Virus genome (UHGV): UHGV-1292713
Strand: one strand, 5' to 3'
DNA length: 30,697 bases
From: a virus
The translations under genes and the position numbers were made by a program. The notes under the pieces are model-generated. The model ran no database searches. It saw only the letters and a program-made list of their open reading frames with translations, and was not told the origin of the DNA. Of this stretch, positions 14,292 to 30,697 are shown piece by piece (the stretch's first letter is position 1; the number at the start of each line of letters is the position of its first letter).

Positions 14292-14662
14292 TGGAGCCAT
14301 ACAGCCTCACACTCGATGAGGCCTGTCATTTTCTCAAAATATCCAGACCGACTGCCATTAACTGGATACGCACAGGCCGCCTACAGGCAACACGTAAAGA
14401 TCCAACCAAGCAAAAATCTCCTTACCTCACAACACGGCAAGCTTGCATTGCGGCGCTTCAGTCTCCGCTGCATACTGTCCAGGTGAGCGCGGGTGATGGC
14501 ATAACAGAGGAAAGAAAATGTCACTCTTCCGCAGAAATGAAATATGGTATGCCTCGTATTCGCTCCCGGGCGGGAAACGAATTAAGGAATCTCTTGGCAC
14601 AAAGGACAAGCGGCAAGCTCAGGAGTTGCACGACAAGCGAAAAGCAGAACTCTGGCGAGTAG
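14291..14662 (+). CDS. Excisionase-like (AlpA/Xis family HTH); 3' extent uncertain
   Basis: Start at ATG 14291 ([31 protein letters not shown]...), overlapping the upstream stop. The frame stays open to 14662, overlapping the integrase start at 14518; the functional product may be shorter. Confidence 0.45.
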
Positions 14663-15681
14663 AAAAGCTAGGGGATTTACCTGATGTCACTTTTGAAGAG
14701 GCCTGCCTAAGATGGCTTGAGGAAAAAGCTGATAAAAAATCTCTCGATTCAGATAAAAGCCGGATTGAGTTCTGGCTTGAACATTTTGAGGGTATAAGGC
14801 TTAAAGATATCTCGGAGGCAAAGATTTACTCTGCTGTAAGCAGAATGCATAACAGAAAGACGAAAGAAATATGGAAACAGAAAGTTCAGGCCGCCATCAG
14901 GAAAGGTAAAGAACCGCCTGTTTATGAACCAAAGCCAGTATCAACTCAGACAAAGGCAAAGCATCTTGCCATGATAAAGGCCATTCTCCGTGCTGCAGAA
15001 CGCGACTGGAAGTGGCTGGAAAAAGCGCCTGTCATCAAGATACCAGCGGTCAGAAACAAGCGAGTCAGATGGCTGGAAAAGGAGGAAGCAAAACGCCTTA
15101 TTGATGAGTGCCCCGAACCACTGAAATCTGTCGTCAAGTTTGCGCTGGCAACTGGTCTGAGAAAGTCGAACATCATAAATCTGGAATGGCAACAAATCGA
15201 CATGCAGCGACGAGTTGCCTGGGTGAATCCAGAAGAGAGCAAATCAAACCGCGCCATTGGTGTGGCGCTGAACGATACCGCCTGTAAAGTGTTGCGTGAT
15301 CAAATAGGCAAGCATCACAAATGGGTGTTTGTACATACCAAGGCGGCTAAGCGAGCAGATGGAACATCAACGCCTGCGGTCAGGAAGATGCGCATCGACA
15401 GCAAGACATCATGGCTATCAGCTTGTCGTCGTGCAGGAATTGAAGATTTCCGTTTCCATGACCTCAGACACACCTGGGCAAGCTGGCTGATCCAGTCAGG
15501 CGTCCCATTATCTGTGCTTCAGGAAATGGGCGGATGGGAGTCCATAGAAATGGTTCGTAGGTATGCTCACCTTGCGCCTAATCATTTGACAGAGCATGCA
15601 AGGAAAATAGACGACATTTTTGGTGATAATGTCCCAAATATGTCCCACTGTGGAATTATGGAGGATATAAAGAAGGCGTAA
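14518..15681 (+). CDS. int: Tyrosine site-specific integrase (DLP12 IntD-like, tRNA-Arg-targeting)
   Basis: 387-aa ORF with the C-terminal catalytic signature ([10 protein letters not shown]...VRRYAHL); immediately followed by a tRNA-Arg 3' fragment. Confidence 0.9.
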
Positions 15682-15696
15682 CTGATTGAATTGTAA

Positions 15697-15741
15697 TGGC
15701 GCGCCCTGCAGGATTCGAACCTGCGGCCCACGACTTAGAAG
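15697..15741 (-). other. Attachment-site core: 3' 45 nt of tRNA-Arg(UCU) (argU-like), partial tRNA
   Basis: Reverse complement reads cttctaagtcgtgggccgcaggttcgaatcctgcagggcgcgcca, i.e. anticodon loop with TCT, T-arm GCAGG-TTCGAAT-CCTGC, acceptor 3' strand and CCA. The 5' half of the tRNA is absent; the sequence diverges after the anticodon loop. Confidence 0.75.
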
Positions 15742-16163
15742 TTCCTAGAACGACATTTTAAGTCAACAAATTACCGCGCCATCTCTGCGCTCACACGTCC
15801 CACTACCTCAAAACATGTAAAGCCTTGCAAGCCATTGTGAGGCCTTATGTGTCTCAGTTTTGTCCCTCTTTTTTGTACTAAAAAACATAGCAATTGAGGA
15901 TAAACCTCATGCTATTTTCGCTTATATGCCTTTAAAGGCATGGCGCTTAAATAGATAAAAACACCACAAAAGCATAAAAAACCACACAGTAAAACCGCAA
16001 CATAAAACAATAACAGATAATTAAACCAAAAACAGATAGCGCATTGTGATAATCATTCAATACTAAACAAAATATAAACAGTGGAGCAATATGTGATTGA
16101 CTCATTAAGTTAGATATAAAAAATACATATTCAATCATTAAAACGATTGAATGGAGAACTTTT

Positions 16164-17117
16164 ATGCGGGCGAAACTTCTGGGAATAGTTCTGACAACCC
16201 CTATTGCGATCAGCTCTTTTGCTTCTACCGAGACTATATCGTTTACTCCTGACAACATCAATGCGGACATTAGTCTTGGAACTCTGAGCGGAAAAACAAA
16301 AGAGCGCGTTTATCTAGCTGAAGAAGGAGGCCGAAAAGTCAGTCAACTCGACTGGAAATTCAATAACGCTGCAATTATTAAAGGTGCAATTAATTGGGAT
16401 TTGATGCCCCAGATATCTATTGGGGCTGCGGGCTGGACTACTCTCGGCAGCCGAGGTGGCAATATGGTCGATCAGGACTGGATGGATTCCAGTAACCCCG
16501 GAACCTGGACAGATGAAAGTAGGCACCCTGATACACAACTCAATTATGCCAACGAATTTGATCTGAATATCAAAGGCTGGCTCCTCAACGAACCCAATTA
16601 CCGCCTGGGACTCATGGCCGGATATCAGGAAAGCCGTTATAGCTTTACAGCCAGAGGTGGTTCCTATATCTACAGTTCTGAGGAGGGATTCAGAGATGAT
16701 ATCGGCTCCTTCCCGAATGGAGAAAGAGCAATCGGCTACAAACAACGTTTTAAAATGCCCTACATTGGCTTGACTGGAAGTTATCGTTATGAAGATTTTG
16801 AGCTAGGTGGCACATTTAAATACAGCGGCTGGGTGGAAGCATCTGATAACGATGAGCACTATGACCCAGGAAAAAGAATCACTTATCGCAGTAAAGTCAA
16901 AGACCAAAATTACTATTCTGTTGCAGTCAATGCAGGTTATTACGTAACACCTAACGCAAAGGTTTATGTTGAAGGCGCATGGAATCGGGTTACGAATAAA
17001 AAAGGTAATACTTCACTTTATGATCACAATGATAACACTTCAGACTACAGCAAAAATGGTGCAGGCATAGAAAACTATAACTTCATCACTACTGCTGGTC
17101 TTAAGTACACCTTTTAA
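16164..17117 (+). CDS. ompT: Outer membrane protease OmpT (omptin family)
   Basis: 317-aa ORF with signal peptide; sequence matches my recollection of E. coli OmpT essentially throughout. Confidence 0.9.
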   Translation: MRAKLLGIVLTTPIAISSFASTETISFTPDNINADISLGTLSGKTKERVYLAEEGGRKVSQLDWKFNNAAIIKGAINWDLMPQISIGAAGWTTLGSRGGNMVDQDWMDSSNPGTWTDESRHPDTQLNYANEFDLNIKGWLLNEPNYRLGLMAGYQESRYSFTARGGSYIYSSEEGFRDDIGSFPNGERAIGYKQRFKMPYIGLTGSYRYEDFELGGTFKYSGWVEASDNDEHYDPGKRITYRSKVKDQNYYSVAVNAGYYVTPNAKVYVEGAWNRVTNKKGNTSLYDHNDNTSDYSKNGAGIENYNFITTAGLKYTF

Positions 17118-18971: not shown

Positions 18972-19277
18972 TCAATATACATTTTGCACCTTCGAGATAG
19001 TAATGACTGTTACTGTAACATGAGTTACAAACAGCTTCATACCCAGAGCTACTGATGTATCAACTCGATTCAACAATACCCGATATTTATTCCATGCCTC
19101 CAGCAACGATCTTTCTTCCTCCGTTGCGATTTCCAGATCTACAGCATCCTGCAGTGGCGCAATATACTCACTGAATTCCTGGATGTAGAACTGTGTAGTG
19201 ACGGTCTTCCAGCCATTCGGCTCCTGCTGTATCGAAGCATACCAGGCTATTTCAATATCGCTATGCTGCGGCAGCAT
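18972..19277 (-). pseudogene. Tail fibre assembly protein remnant (C-terminal fragment, tfaX-like)
   Basis: The 101-aa ORF shares the C-terminal segment [14 protein letters not shown]...[17 protein letters not shown] with the intact tfa at 21790..22365; lacks the N-terminal domain. Confidence 0.65.
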
Positions 19278-19333
19278 TTAACCCCTTGTAATTCATCGCC
19301 ATAATTGATTTAATTCACAAATAAAACTATAAC

Positions 19334-20002
19334 ATGGTGAAATTAATGAAAAAAAACACAGATGATGGGGCTAAAATTTACACACCACTTACCCTAAAGC
19401 TTTATGACTGGTGGGTTTTGGGAGTATCAAATCGGCTTGCATGGGGATGTCCTACAAAGGAACACCTTCTTCCACACTTTCTGGAACATTTAGGTAACAA
19501 CCATCTGGATATTGGTGTTGGAACTGGGTTTTACCTTACTCACGTACCTGAGAGTAGTCTGATATCTTTAATGGATTTGAACGAAGCTAGCCTGAACGCG
19601 GCATCTACAAGGGCTGGGGAATCAAAAATTAAACATAAAATTAACCATGATGTTTTTGAACCTTATCCCGCGGCGTTACATGGTCAATTTGATTCCATTT
19701 CCATGTTTTACCTTCTTCACTGCCTGCCTGGAAATATATCTACAAAAAGCTGTGTAATACGCAATGCGGCGCAGGCCTTAACTGACGATGGAACTCTATA
19801 CGGAGCCACAATTCTTGGCGATGGAGTTGTGCACAATAGCTTCGGTCAAAAACTGATGCGCATTTACAATCAGAAAGGCATCTTTTCAAACACAAAAGAT
19901 TCCGAAGAAGGCTTAACACATATACTCTCAGAGCATTTCGAGAATGTTAAAACCAAGGTTCAAGGTACTGTAGTAATGTTTTCCGCTTCAGGGAAAAAAT
20001 AG
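19334..20002 (+). CDS. Class I SAM-dependent methyltransferase (YbcY-like by recollection)
   Basis: 222-aa ORF with motif I LDIGVGTGFY. Confidence 0.7.
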   Translation: MVKLMKKNTDDGAKIYTPLTLKLYDWWVLGVSNRLAWGCPTKEHLLPHFLEHLGNNHLDIGVGTGFYLTHVPESSLISLMDLNEASLNAASTRAGESKIKHKINHDVFEPYPAALHGQFDSISMFYLLHCLPGNISTKSCVIRNAAQALTDDGTLYGATILGDGVVHNSFGQKLMRIYNQKGIFSNTKDSEEGLTHILSEHFENVKTKVQGTVVMFSASGKK

Positions 20003-20007
20003 CATCC

Positions 20008-20048
20008 AACCGCAGCACGTTCTTGCATAAGGCGTGTCTGCGGTTTTT
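20008..20048 (+). terminator. Rho-independent terminator after the SAM-MTase gene
   Basis: accgcagcacg / cgtgtctgcggt hairpin (one bulge) followed by T5. Confidence 0.55.
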
Positions 20049-20549
20049 CAACTATTCAGATACATCACTCCCATCACATTCATTCCTCCGCATCATAGGC
20101 ATATAGACTATATCACCTTGATATTTTTCTTCTTCAGATAAAAACTGTTATCTATGTATACTTTTAAACCCAATCCGTGTAGAGTCTCTGCATAAGATAG
20201 TTTGCAGTTGCCACTTCAGCTTGCGCCATAAACCGCCTGATTTTTGCTGCCACCTGTTAGCATTCCTGTATACCTGAAACGACAATGTTTATCTACGAAC
20301 TTTAAGAACCCCCAGGATAAAAATTGTCAACTATATCATATATAACACATTACTAATTCGAGGCTATATGAACAGCATACTGATAATCACTTCGCTCCTT
20401 ATCATATTCAGCATTTTTAGTCATGCTCTAATAAAATTAGGGATTGGCATATCCAATAACCCAGACAAAACCGATGTATAAGTCAACATATACTGAATCA
20501 GACATACAATATCGCAATGAAAATCAATAATATTTTAAGGAATATCTTC

Positions 20550-20783
20550 ATGAAATCAAAAGACACCCTAAAGTGGTTCCCTGCGCAGCTTCCTGAAGTA
20601 AGAATTATCCTAGGGGATGCTGTAATGGAAGTAGCAAAACAGGGAAGACCTATCAATACCAGAACATTGCTTGATCACATTGAAGGAAACATAAAGAAAA
20701 AGTCATGGCTGGATAACAAAGAATTATTACAAACAGCGATATCAGTTCTTAAAGACAACAAAAATTTAAATGGTAAAATGTAA
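20550..20783 (+). CDS. Small hypothetical protein in AT-rich gene-poor segment
   Basis: Start assigned to ATG 20550 (MKSKDTLKW...) with AAGGA Shine-Dalgarno 8 nt upstream; 77 aa; no recognisable motif. Confidence 0.3.
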   Translation: MKSKDTLKWFPAQLPEVRIILGDAVMEVAKQGRPINTRTLLDHIEGNIKKKSWLDNKELLQTAISVLKDNKNLNGKM

Positions 20784-21101
20784 TATAATAAACTTACTTT
20801 TTTATCATTTTTCCACTTTAACAACATTTTGCTCCACTTTTCCACGACCAAACAACTTGAAATCTGGTTAAAATAACACGCAACACTATTCTTCTTCCTT
20901 GAGTCCGCCCGGAACTCGAAAAACAAACCGAGTTAAGGCCATTTTTCACAAAATCGATTTTGGATCTCACCAAAATTACGGGGTTGCATACGCATTCGTT
21001 TATTTTCGAACGTGTACATACAAATATGTACAAAAATAATCAAAATTATTTTCTGAGATGCATTATGATATGTACACCAATTTCGTATAGAAGATCTCAC
21101 T

Positions 21102-21692
21102 ATGTCTCGAATTTATGCTTACTGTCGGGTATCAACTCTGGAACAAACAACCAAAAATCAACGTCGGGAAATCGAAAGTGCAGGTTTTAACATCAAATCT
21201 CAGCAAATAATTGAAGAACAAATTAGCGGCTCAGCAGCAACCAGTGAGCGTCCTGGTTTTAACCAGTTGCTTGATCGACTGAAAAGAGGTGATGCATTGA
21301 TTGTCACAAAACTGGATCGCCTCGGTTGTAATCCAATGGATATCAGTAAAACGGTGGAACAACTGACCAAAGCAGGTATCAAAGTGCATTGCTTAGCATT
21401 GGGGGGCGTTGACCTGACCAGTCCACCTGGAAAAATGATGATGCAAGTAATTTCAGCAGTCGCTGAATTTGAGCGAGACCTTTTACTTGAGCGTACTCAT
21501 TCAGGGATATTAAGAGCACGGGGCGCAGGAAAGCGATTTGGTCGCCCACCTGTGTTAAATGATGAACAAATACAGAGGGTACTAGAGCAAATTAAGTCAG
21601 GTATAAATATAAGTGACATTGCCCAAGAATTCAAAACCTCGCGGCAAACCATTTTAAGAGCTAAAGCAAAAAATCAGACACCTGATATATAA
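21102..21692 (+). CDS. Serine recombinase (resolvase/invertase family, Pin/Gin/Hin-like)
   Basis: 196-aa ORF; N-terminal catalytic region YCRVSTLEQ, resolvase core and C-terminal HTH; located beside the tail fibre / tfa genes. Confidence 0.85.
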
Positions 21693-21789
21693 AAATAATC
21701 TCGGTGTGAGATTCCTTACGTTTTCCAAGCCCCCCTTCCTAGCCTTAAATGGAAAGATACTTCTAATTATAGAATTTATATATCTTACC

Positions 21790-22365
21790 CTACGGTAGGG
21801 CTGGCCATTCAATATCCGGTGCAGTTGATGTATCAACACGATTCAGCAACACCCGATACTTTTTCCAGGCTTCCAGCAACAAGGTTTCTTTCTCCGTTGC
21901 GATCTCCAGATCCACAGCATCCTGAAGCGGCGCTATATGCTCACTGGCTACCTGCATCAGGCTGTTTTTTGTTTCTTCCGCCTCCCGGATCCGGAACAGT
22001 TTTTCTGCTTCCGTATCCTTCACCCAGGCTGTGCCGTTCCACTTCTGAAACTCCCCTTCCGGGGATAACCAGGTGACATTTTCCGGTAATGAGCCGAGTT
22101 CAGAAATAAATAACGCGTCGCCGGAAGCCACGTCATAAACCGTTTTACCCCGATGATCTTCAACGAGATGCCACGATGACTCATCACTGTTGAAAACAGC
22201 CACGAAACCAGCCGGAATATCTGGCGGTGCAATATCGGTACTGTTTGCTGGCAGACCTGTATGAGGCGGAATATATGCATCACCTTCACCAATAAATTCA
22301 TTAGTTCCGGACAGCAGATTATAAATTTTTATGGTCCGTGGTTGTTCACTCATTCTGAATGCCAT
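21790..22365 (-). CDS. tfa: Tail fibre assembly protein (Tfa)
   Basis: 191-aa ORF overlapping the stf stop (TAATG); conserved Tfa C-terminus. Confidence 0.8.
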
Positions 22366-25300
22366 TATGCAAGCCTCACAATATAGTTAAATGCGATGTT
22401 TTTGACGGTGTTTTCCGCGTTACCAGCAGCGTTAACGGTGATGGTGTGTCCATGTGAGCCAATCGCAACCGAGTGCGTATGAGCACCAATACCGACAGTA
22501 TGTGCGTGAGCACCTGCAGATGCAGCTGTGCCGCTGACACTATGAGTGTGCGCTCCTGCAGCACTTGTATTCACACTGGCCGCAGACACTACCTTATGTA
22601 CTGACCCATTTTGTGACCACTGGCTGACTGCTGATGCGCCTGTGACACTATGAGTATGGTTTCCGGCACTTGCGGCTGTACCGCTCACACTGTGCGTATG
22701 CGCCCCGATGTTATTCGTGGATTTAGTGCCGTAATCAAACGACGATGTGGTTTTCGTCCCCAAATCCGTACTGGATGCGCTGGCGCTGTGGGTGTGCGAT
22801 TTAATGCCGTCCTGTTCCTGAGACAATACAGCCCGACCACTGGCAGGTTTGCCCTTAATCGTCCAGCCACGCATATCAGGGATCACGCCTGACGGATAAG
22901 CGGCTGCAAGTTTCGGGTATGCAGATTTGTCAAAAGTCTGCCCCTGCATCAGGGCATAACCAGACGGAACGGTATCTGATGGCCACGGGATTGGTGCACC
23001 GACTGGATAAAACTCTGCAGGAGGATGAGCTGAGGTGTAAAGCTGCGCCCACGGCGACCAGTTTGCGTCGGTCGTATCCCGTCGTGAACGAATAAATGCC
23101 GGAGCATGAGCACCGCTTGTACCACTCCAGCCGATGAGTAACTCACCTTCGCCAACGGCTGTCATCCCTTTCAGGTGAATGATATTTCCATACACTGTTG
23201 GATATCCGTTGTTATACACCTCGTATAACTCAAGACCTGTTGCCCCCTGCGTATTGTCTGTCAGCGCGATTACCCGACCTTTTGAAGCCAGATTAACTGA
23301 TGATACTGCTGTTCCACCTGACGGTAACGCCCCGATCTCTGATGCCGTTGGCTTATTTCTGGAGTTATAGTCCCTTCGCCAGCCAGGTGAATAATCTGTT
23401 CCGTGATTAATATAGGTAAGCTGAGCGTTAGTTGTTCCACCACCAGTGGAGGTGGTCGGTGTGGTAATGCGGATCGTCATCGCTGACTTTATCCCCATTA
23501 CTTCAATGACAGCTCCGGCGAGATGAATATTACCGCAGCCAGTATCAGTAATGATTTTATTATTGCCATAAGACCAGGAACCCTTGCACATCCAGTATGG
23601 ATGGTTAAATGCTCCCTGAGAATCCAGCCACTCGATAAACTGTGCAGTCGTCCAGTCTCCTGTTGTTGTGCTTACTGACCCACAGAAGGCGCGGCAGGCA
23701 CCAATATTTTTCGTAAAGGTGTCTTTGCCAGGGATATCCGCACCGTTCTGATCTTTCTGCAGACGTTTCTCAGCATTGTCATTGGCTGCTTTTACTGCCT
23801 TTGGCGTTGCCGCCAGCGTTTCAGACGTGCTGTTGGTCGCGCTGCTGAGCTGAACTATCCCTTTCTGTGCTGTCGTTGCATCCTGTGCGGTGTATTTCCC
23901 GTTAGCCAGGTCATACGCGGCCTTAACTGCTTTTGGCGTTGCCGCCAGTGACTCGGAAGTGCTGTCGATCGCACTGCTGAGCTGTACTATCCCCTTTTTC
24001 GTCGTGCTCGCATCCTCAAGCGCCACGGCGGATGCAATATCCTCTGCCCGTTTTGCTGCTGTCTCAGCGCGCGTTGCCGCGGATTCTGCTGTACTTTTGC
24101 TCTGTGCTGCCGCCGTCGCACTGCCAGCTGCCTCTGTCGCCTTCGTGGATGCCGTCGTGGCGCTGCCCTTCGCTGCTGACGCCTGTCTGGTCGCCTCATC
24201 TTTTGAAGCAGACGCAGATGATGCCGATGACGCCGCCGAACTGGCTGACGATGCGGCTGCCGTTTTTGAGGATTCTGCACTGGTTTCCGACGCTTTCGCA
24301 TTCGTTTCGGATGTCTTCGCTGCGGATGCAGACCTCGCTGCTGCGCTGGCCTGTTCAGCGGCTTCGCCAGCCTTCGTTGTAGCTGTTGAAGCGGACGATG
24401 CAGCGCTTTCTGCCGATTTTCCGGCGGCAGTGGCACTGGCTGAGGCCTGCCCGGCACTTGTTGACGCTGCACTGGCAGACGACGCAGCCGCTGTTTTTGA
24501 GCCTGCTGCTGCGGAGGCACTCTGTTCCGCTGCCGTTTCAGAAGCCTTGGCGTTCGTCTCGGACGTTTTTGCCGCCTTCGCGGAATTTCCTGCCGCCGTA
24601 GCCGAGGAAGCTGCGCTGCTGGCGCTCGAGGCTGCGTTCGTTTCTGATGATTTTGCCGCCTCTTTTGAAGCCGACGCATCCCGTGCTGAAGTGGCTGCTT
24701 CTGACGCTTTCGTGGTCGCGGTGGATGCAGAAGTGGCTGCTGATTGTTGTGACGCTGCCGCATTCGTTTCTGACGTTTTTGCCGTAGCGGCACTGGTGGC
24801 CGCCGCGCTTTTTGAGGACTCTGCAGCGGCAGCACTTTTTGATGCTTCAGTGGCCTTTGCTGATGCCGTTCCTGCGCTGGAAGACGCTGACTGAGCCGAC
24901 GAAGCGGCCTGTCCGGCTGACGTGCTGGCTGCGCGTGCTGAGCCTGCAGCATCAGTCGCATGGGTTGCCGCCTCACGGGCTGATGTGCTGGCATCGCTGG
25001 CTGACTTCTTCGCGGCTGCTGTGTTCTGTGCCACCGCGGACGCGTTACGCGCCACCTCTTCCACCATCAGTTCAAAACGTCTCAGTGCCTCCGGACGGGC
25101 ATCATCCTCCGTCATGGCACCGAGAAAATCATTCAGCGTACCGGGTTGAGAATCTTCATACACGGTGATGGTCCCGGCATGTGACGGCGGGAATCCCTCC
25201 ACCAACAGAATAACGCTGTACTGACCGTACTCAACGTCCATACTGTAACGCCCGGCTTCATCCGGATTTTCTGAGGCCAGCGTGTTCACCACCACCGTGT

Positions 25301-29580: not shown

Positions 29581-30252
29581 TCAGCGACCAATCACCACAA
29601 CCTGACCACCATCCCCTTCGTCTGCCGTGCTGATCTCCTGAGAAACCACGCGTGACCCCACGCGCATTTCACCGTACAGAACCGGCAGAACATTACCCTG
29701 GGCAACCATGTTATCCAGGGAGGAGAAATAGGTGTTCTGTTTGCCGTTATCCGTTGTCTGTGTACGGGGAGTTCTGGCTTTCGGTGCCAGCATCTGCGCC
29801 ACACCACCGAGCACCATACTGGCACCGAGAGAAAACAGGATGCCGGTCATACCACCGGCCCCAATGGCTGCCCCCCATGCTGCAAGGGTGGCTCCGGCGG
29901 TAAAGAATGATCCGGCAATGGCGGCAGCCCCCAGGACAATCTGGAATACGCCACCTGACTTGGCCCCGGCGACTCTGGGAACAATATGAATCACAGCGCC
30001 ATCAGGCAGAGTCTCATGTAACTGCGCCGTTAACCCGGACGTGCTGACGTCCCGCCCGGCAATCCGTACCTGATACCAGCCGTCGCTCAGTTTCTGACGA
30101 AACATCGGGAGCTGTGTGGCCAGTGCGCGGATGGCTTCAGCCCCCGTTTTCACACGAAGGTCGATGCGGCGGCCAAATCGTTGCAAATCCCCGTAAAGGC
30201 AGATGCGCGCCATGCCCGGTGACGCCAGAGGGAGTGTGTGCGTCGCTGCCAT
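29581..30252 (-). CDS. I: Tail assembly protein I
   Basis: 223-aa ORF, the same length as lambda I; glycine-rich hydrophobic C-terminal half; immediately upstream of J. Confidence 0.85.
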   Translation of the reverse strand: MAATHTLPLASPGMARICLYGDLQRFGRRIDLRVKTGAEAIRALATQLPMFRQKLSDGWYQVRIAGRDVSTSGLTAQLHETLPDGAVIHIVPRVAGAKSGGVFQIVLGAAAIAGSFFTAGATLAAWGAAIGAGGMTGILFSLGASMVLGGVAQMLAPKARTPRTQTTDNGKQNTYFSSLDNMVAQGNVLPVLYGEMRVGSRVVSQEISTADEGDGGQVVVIGR

Positions 30253-30697
30253 TTGTCGGTATACCTCTCTCGTTTGCTCAGTTGTTCAGGAATATGGTGC
30301 AGCAGCTCGCCATCACCACAGTAAATGGCGGCATGATTCGGCACCGATGAACCAAAACAGCACAGCAGCACATCGCCCGGTTGTGCTGATGACAACGGCA
30401 CCTGATACAGCCCTGTGGCCTCCAGATTATCCAGATAGAGATTCTGACCGTGACGCCACCAGTCATCCTCGCGATGAAAATCCGGCATCTCAATCCCCGC
30501 CAGATGATAAGCATCCCGGAACAGCGTGTAACAGTCCGTCACCCCGTGCTCAAAGCGCCGCCCGGTGAGAGTGCGTCGCTGCCATTTGTCGGTATACCTC
30601 TCTCGTTTGCTCAGTTGTTCAGGAATATGGTGCAGCAGCTCGCCATCACCACAGTAAATGGCGGCATGATTCGGCACCGATGAACCAAAACAGCACA
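30150..30697 (-). CDS. K: Tail assembly protein K (NlpC/P60-type), 5' end beyond the window, carrying an internal in-frame repeat
   Basis: Translation matches lambda K C-terminal region as I recall it (LTGRRFEHGVTDCYTLFRDAYHLAG...NHAAIYCGDGELLHHIP...); overlaps the start of I; the frame remains open to the window edge. Confidence 0.7.
   Translation of the reverse strand, partial: CCFGSSVPNHAAIYCGDGELLHHIPEQLSKRERYTDKWQRRTLTGRRFEHGVTDCYTLFRDAYHLAGIEMPDFHREDDWWRHGQNLYLDNLEATGLYQVPLSSAQPGDVLLCCFGSSVPNHAAIYCGDGELLHHIPEQLSKRERYTDKWQRRTHSLWRHRAWRASAFTGICNDLAAASTFV
30571..30697. repeat. 127-bp perfect direct repeat of 30238..30364 (I start / K C-terminal region), period 333 bp
   Basis: Identical strings gtgcgtcgctgccatttgtcggtatacctctctcgtttgctcagttgttcaggaatatggtgcagcagctcgccatcaccacagtaaatggcggcatgattcggcaccgatgaaccaaaacagcaca at both positions; the second copy runs to the window end. 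Confidence 0.85.

Follow-up and report, generated by a model that had tools for sequence, protein, structure and literature searches.

Gene K and its neighbors at the right end of the window

The DNA analyzed here (the window, that is, the whole stretch of 30,697 nt from the virus genome UHGV-1292713) ends on its right side within a tail module encoded on the minus strand. The window holds the 3' part of gene K, whose stop codon lies at 30150-30152; the gene runs past the window end, and its JAB half is off the contig. Genes I and J follow directly after K, with an overlap of about 100 nt between K and I, which is the order expected of the tail module, gene L being off the window. The right end of the window shares 98-99.5% DNA identity with the cultured lambdoid coliphages 2H10, mEp460, ev207, phage 21, and 2G7b, and the gene order K-I-J-lom-stf-tfa of 2H10, 2G7b, mEp460, and phage 21 is the same as that of the window. 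The exact J protein was found in 31 blocks of public assemblies, where it led only to relatives. The features of this end are collected in Table 1.

TABLE 1 Features of the tail genes and of the duplicated unit in gene K (a slash marks the breakpoint)
Feature	Position in window	Strand	Description
Gene J, central tail fiber, 1132 aa	26122..29520	-	Context; query for near-identical relatives
Gene I (tail tip protein I)	29581..30252	-	Pfam Lambda_tail_I (PF06805), 98 bits; overlaps the 3' end of K
C-terminal tail of K	30150..30237	-	HSLWRHRAWRASAFTGICNDLAAASTFV + stop; outside the duplicated unit; identical to relatives
Complete 333-nt unit, K codons 109-219	30238..30570	-	LTGRRFEHGVTDC...KWQRRT (translation); essentially the whole NlpC/P60 domain
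Duplicated start region of gene I	30550..30585	-	11-codon ORF, MAATHSHRAAL + stop (translation)
Novel head-to-tail junction, between 30571 and 30570	30556..30585	-	...CAGCGACGCAC/TCTCACCGGG... = QRRT/LTGRR; blunt
Terminal 127-mer	30571..30697	-	Last 127 nt of the unit, K codons about 178-219, CCFGSS...KWQRRT; identical to 30238-30364

The lambda-type gpK is composed of a Prok-JAB and an NlpC/P60 domain and is annotated as a C40 family peptidase. In the K proteins of relatives with an identical J, Pfam places Prok-JAB (PF14464) at residues 3-104, and in the 247-aa K of one of the relatives (L004) it places NLPC_P60 at residues 111-224. The NLPC_P60 domain is also present in the K of the window, where the partial protein was matched by PF00877 with 70.5 bits in two stretches. 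On the basis of its sequence, the gene is a member of the lambda gpK family in all respects that the window covers. This is in agreement with the first-pass annotation, which had described it as a tail gene K with an NlpC/P60 region: the repeated codons 109-219 can be set against the Pfam domain at 111-224. The gpK of lambda is needed for tail assembly, has been undetected in virions, and is of unknown location (PMC10721106, PMC12617516).

An in-frame head-to-tail junction in gene K

The first-pass annotation had also pointed to a perfect direct repeat of 127 bp with a period of 333 bp that keeps the K frame. Both on re-reading of the sequence and in a repeat search, 30238-30364 and 30571-30697 were identical over 127 nt, the start-to-start distance was 333 nt (3 x 111), and the minus-strand translation stayed in frame. 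When the repeat was stretched leftward to 134 nt, the identity dropped to 98%, which sets the exact edge at 30238/30571; the other edge is the final base of the window (30697). Of the two limits of the exact repeat, therefore, one is set by the junction, whereas the other reflects no more than where the window stops. Across the whole window this match is the sole perfect long repeat, and the only other repeat of at least 40 nt is an imperfect one of 107 nt with 78% identity. The perfect match and the lack of any other perfect long repeat rule out an origin by chance or from low-complexity sequence. Tandem Repeats Finder made no call at the site and found no array, because fewer than two full copies are present: the window contains one full 333-nt unit and 127 nt of another. 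The truncated copy is uninformative on the true extent of the duplication.

The minus-strand translation of K in the window reads CCFGSSVPNHAAIYCGDGELLHHIPEQLSKRERYTDKWQRRT / LTGRRFEHG...KWQRRT / HSLWRHRAW...FV, followed by the stop codon. According to an alignment with phage 2H10 and seven near-identical prophages, the native sequence 5' of LTGRR ends in ...FRCVPH, encoded by ...GTGTGCCGCA/TCTCACC. In the window this end is replaced by ...GACGCAC/TCTCACC, that is, ...CAGCGACGCAC/TCTCACC, which bears out the earlier statement that the copy takes the place of the sequence expected before LTGRRFEHG. Whereas the reference K has 247 aa and one NlpC/P60 domain, in the window the end of another copy, and not the ...FRCVPH linker, stands before the domain. 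The junction joins K codon 219 (...KWQRRT) to codon 109 (LTGRRFEHG...) in frame, as is the hallmark of a tandem duplication. Reconstructed with two copies, K would have 358 aa and the composition JAB, NlpC/P60, NlpC/P60, and C-terminal tail.

The native flanks of the two breakpoints in 2H10 and the near-identical prophages are GCCGCA/TCTCACC and GACGCAC/ACACTCC. Compared with these sequences, the breakpoints showed neither microhomology nor a prior repeat that could serve for slippage or for a mis-join in the graph. The motif CGCA near both breakpoints was considered as a slippage site and rejected, being one base out of register, so that it would give a 332-nt, out-of-frame event.

The repeated 127-mer also includes the first 15 nt of the longest ORF of gene I and the sequence upstream of its ATG, with the 20 nt before it. 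The 11-codon ORF at the duplicated start region (Table 1) has a bearing only if gene I truly starts with the ATG at 30252, and it may be irrelevant; gene callers in the relatives place the start further downstream, giving proteins of 190 or 210 aa.

The length of 127 nt and the assembly graph

To interpret the length of the repeat, we simulated the locus by joining the upstream sequence of a relative, n copies of the unit, and the downstream sequence of the window, and built the de Bruijn graph at k = 127. The graph of a single copy had no branch. With two or three copies it had exactly two branching vertices, namely, the 127-mers at the start of the unit (two predecessors) and at its end (two successors). 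The sole vertex with an out-degree of 2, at unit offset 206, is identical to the terminal 127-mer of the window, and the stretch 30238-30697 has 460 nt (127 + 333), as expected for the junction, unit, and exit edges. The sets of (k + 1)-mers for two and three copies at k = 127 were identical, so the copy number is not recoverable from the sequence.

SPAdes assemblies of phages with 127-nt k-mers have been described in which contigs carry a repeat at each end (PMC10140849, PMC6853846), and in one of these studies the end repeat is stated to be the 127-bp k-mer. The value of 127 was most likely set by the assembler and equals the k of such assemblies. The right end of the window is very probably a contig end at the loop vertex of a k = 127 graph, although we infer both the contig end and the k from one and the same number. 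The 127-bp repeat thus probably reflects the assembly and not the length of a biological repeat. Of the first-pass reading, the in-frame junction and the implied extra copy (at least one) of the 333-nt segment are retained, whereas 127 bp as a biological repeat length is not, the overlap at a contig end being the most likely source of that number. Like the known k-mer-length end overlaps of SPAdes, the repeat in the window is exact, is 127 nt long, and touches the contig end. In circular phage contigs, however, such an overlap matches the other contig end, whereas here it matches an internal site, which points to a small loop in the graph. An end overlap of a circular genome was rejected on the same ground, since the terminal 127-mer matches a site 333 nt away and not the start of the window. 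A perfect 127-nt repeat that touches a contig end should accordingly be read as an assembler k-mer overlap that marks a loop in the graph and not as a measured biological repeat, and it would be unsafe to annotate the K of the window as a partial or duplicated peptidase from the contig alone.

In the prophage of E. coli CE0021a (L013), which is 99% identical, the position that corresponds to the window start is about 180 nt away from a class II holin gene. Both ends of the window thus lie at what look like borders of shared lambdoid modules, K on the one side and the lysis and structural module near the holin gene on the other, which are typical places for short-read contigs to break. Other draft contigs, with the identical J or with a related K, likewise stop in or just after the K/I overlap, as seen at position 1 of L009 (window 30207) and at the end of L012, and the K/I region is a frequent contig break in short-read assemblies of E. 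coli.

Relatives and searches for the junction elsewhere

The relatives carry one copy of the 127-mer and are free of repeats at both breakpoints. One single-copy relative differs from the window by only 3 nt across 14.4 kb, and all contigs with exactly the same J that reach K, among the matches listed, encode a K of 247 aa. A comparison of K length with related phages had been proposed in the first-pass annotation; it establishes 247 aa as the normal length, and the duplication was seen in none of the relatives.

The junction was also searched for in larger collections. Neither 5,426 complete E. coli genomes nor 50,697 phage records contained a match to a 40-nt probe across it, and the junction was absent from 14,170 K loci of 4,359 complete E. 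coli genomes. The 30-mer of the junction was absent from viral, GTDB-genome, and metagenome contig collections. At the protein level, QRRT/LTGRR was found in no entry of a 5.8-billion-sequence database, in which the best hits reach only 77% of the query, and an exact look-up of the partial K of the window returned no record. As a positive control, a native 40-mer across the start of the unit matched 5,702 places in 3,405 genomes, and the negative results for the junction are therefore meaningful. In the E. coli genomes that carry K, the number of matching places per genome has a median of 2 and reaches 14.

Since the junction is unmatched and the near-identical relatives are single copy, the junction, if real, is either very recent or private to the sample. 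Because the relatives are repeat free at this site, collapse or expansion of a prior repeat cannot have made the junction. A de Bruijn contig is built entirely from k-mers of the input; with no repeat to collapse or expand, the junction must come from reads or from a chimera.

Other duplications within K

Three other K proteins with internal duplications were found in public E. coli records. WP_128997371.1 is a K of 282 aa with a perfect in-frame 105-nt unit in the JAB domain, encoded in a 4.85-Mb record (CP035354.1) and represented by nine UniRef entries. WP_121851521.1 is a K of 275 aa with a perfect in-frame 84-nt unit inside NlpC/P60 (RDCO01000076.1; seven UniRef entries). In WP_070206074.1, a K of 277 aa, 30 residues are repeated, which is equivalent to 90 nt and was seen at the protein level only. 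The DNA of WP_128997371.1 and WP_121851521.1 has perfect copies and blunt junctions without microhomology. In the K genes concerned (L011, 3001-3849; L012, 3001-3828), the 105-nt and 84-nt units both begin with CACAG, which is probably a coincidence. Junction probes for these two duplications gave no match in the RefSeq set of complete genomes.

The three duplications are head to tail and in frame, as in the K of the window. They differ from it in size, their units being of 84-105 nt and covering part of a domain, whereas that of the window has 333 nt and covers the whole catalytic domain, and also in position, both of their copies lying fully within the contig, whereas the second copy in the window is cut by the contig end. 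The event in the window would be a further example of in-frame tandem duplication within K, a kind that is already public, but it is larger and of a whole domain; as such it would be an ordinary structural variant rather than a novel biological feature.

A different case is a public 1.4-kb contig with L and K (L016, 1-1398), in which three imperfect tandem repeats (97%, 94%, and 91%) make up a 294-aa "K" (P0045). The differences between the repeats match known allele variants of K, and judged from these the contig looks like a misassembly in which alleles were mixed.

Interpretation of the junction

The first-pass annotation had named a genuine internal duplication, a higher-copy array, and an assembly artefact as options. 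We suggest, as the most probable reading, that the sequenced DNA carried a tandem duplication of the NlpC/P60 segment of K that kept the frame and was independent of homology, and that the short-read assembler ended the contig in the resulting loop without resolving it. The sequenced DNA would have contained a head-to-tail junction from K codon 219 to codon 109 with a 333-nt unit, and the duplication would form a 333-nt loop in the graph of a SPAdes-type assembler at k = 127. The contig would leave this loop through I and J; in the backward direction, it would halt at the branching 127-mer of the loop, and exactly 127 nt would then be shown twice. A K with two copies would have 358 aa; the duplication would leave gene I whole but bring in a short decoy ORF. 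The other public duplications make such events plausible and, by analogy, suggest that they may be tolerated. In this explanation we likewise infer that reads supported the junction and that the junction is linked to the I and J of the window. Several points speak against it: the junction was matched nowhere in the collections searched, a relative that differs by 3 nt in 14.4 kb is single copy, just one full unit is present, and SPAdes normally passes straight through a fixed, clean duplication of two copies in unique sequence.

Whether the duplication is fixed and functional is a separate matter. A viable lambdoid phage with two complete NlpC/P60 domains in a K of 358 aa is quite improbable in our estimation. 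If a fixed and functional duplication were true, then together with the three shorter duplications, two of them shown to be blunt, it would mark K as a place where tandem duplication without homology, and with it the gain of domains, recurs. A real duplication would be a small natural experiment on gpK, the mechanism of which is still unknown; a doubled NlpC/P60 domain, if tolerated, would be informative on how K works, but it would open no new question.

It is also possible, though unlikely, that the junction exists only in a minority of the molecules, such as a subpopulation of phage genomes in a lysate or virome or of cells in a culture, or that it is part of a second, sequence-identical K in another lambdoid prophage or phage of the same sample. 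The K linked to the I and J of the window would then be normal, and the assembler would simply have followed the variant edge. The multiplicity of K in E. coli (median 2, up to 14 matching places per genome) is consistent with this, and in the graph the loop cannot be tied to a single K copy. The contig stops in the loop rather than traversing it, and the junction is unique among the public sequences searched. In addition, the window is in attP configuration and yet is broken at the borders of shared modules, which would fit a mixture of related phages or tandem lysogens. However, low-coverage connecting edges are usually dropped by assemblers, the 254-nt junction edge at k = 127 requires several overlapping reads, and the window itself carries no direct sign of heterogeneity.

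A pure artefact, in which chimeric library fragments, a mis-join by the assembler or scaffolder, or editing after assembly created the junction and the K of the phage is normal with 247 aa, seems doubtful to us. A blunt junction without microhomology resembles those of random ligation chimeras; this one lies at the extreme end of a contig and is matched nowhere in the collections searched, and K is troublesome in draft assemblies, given that L009 and L012 end in or next to the K-I overlap and that the 1.4-kb contig looks allele mixed. Against an artefact, a random chimera is normally a single read that is pruned from the graph, and all k-mers of a de Bruijn contig derive from reads or from contigs of an earlier k. 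Moreover, the two breakpoints have no sequence in common to lead a path astray, the reading frame is kept exactly, for which the prior chance is 1 in 3, and the other public K duplications are equally blunt.

A higher-copy array of three or more head-to-tail 333-nt units, with no more than the final 1.4 of them on the contig, is very improbable. The k = 127 graphs for two and three copies are identical, and exactly such a contig end would be produced by an assembler that, at each pass, prefers the loop edge to the entry edge and stops on noticing the cycle, a behavior favored when the loop edge has the higher coverage. However, none of the best 120 of 458 hits was a K-family protein with two or more extra partial domains, and lambda-type packaging would be expected to limit the growth of the genome.

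Other features of the window

A gene for a resolvase/invertase-type recombinase at 21102-21692 (+) adjoins the tail fiber assembly gene at 21790-22365 (-), and a partial second Caudo_TAP ORF lies at 18972-19277. The layout of 18972-22365 resembles the invertible tail-fiber segments of the Pin/Gin type; no convincing inverted repeats were found by the recombinase gene.

The imperfect 107-nt direct repeat (78%, spacing of 132) lies at 23778-24016 in the Ala/Ser/Thr-rich region of the gene for the side-tail fiber, which encodes 1008 aa. The protein differs by three residues from that of a relative (L003), and an exact look-up returned no record of the exact window protein.

The region at 14518-17117 is in the phage (attP) configuration, with the integrase gene followed by a 47-nt core (about 15695-15741) and then directly by ompT. 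The 47-nt att core corresponds to the 3' part of a tRNA-Arg gene (argU), and ARAGORN found no complete tRNA at the core. In E. coli 94-3024, an argU prophage has the integrase side at one end and the ompT side at the other, with 28 kb between them. In the cultured phage 2G7b, the omptin gene lies beside attP in the same order, and ompT is therefore a cargo gene of the phage. A tandem double lysogen in E. coli E28 has the same internal junction as the window.
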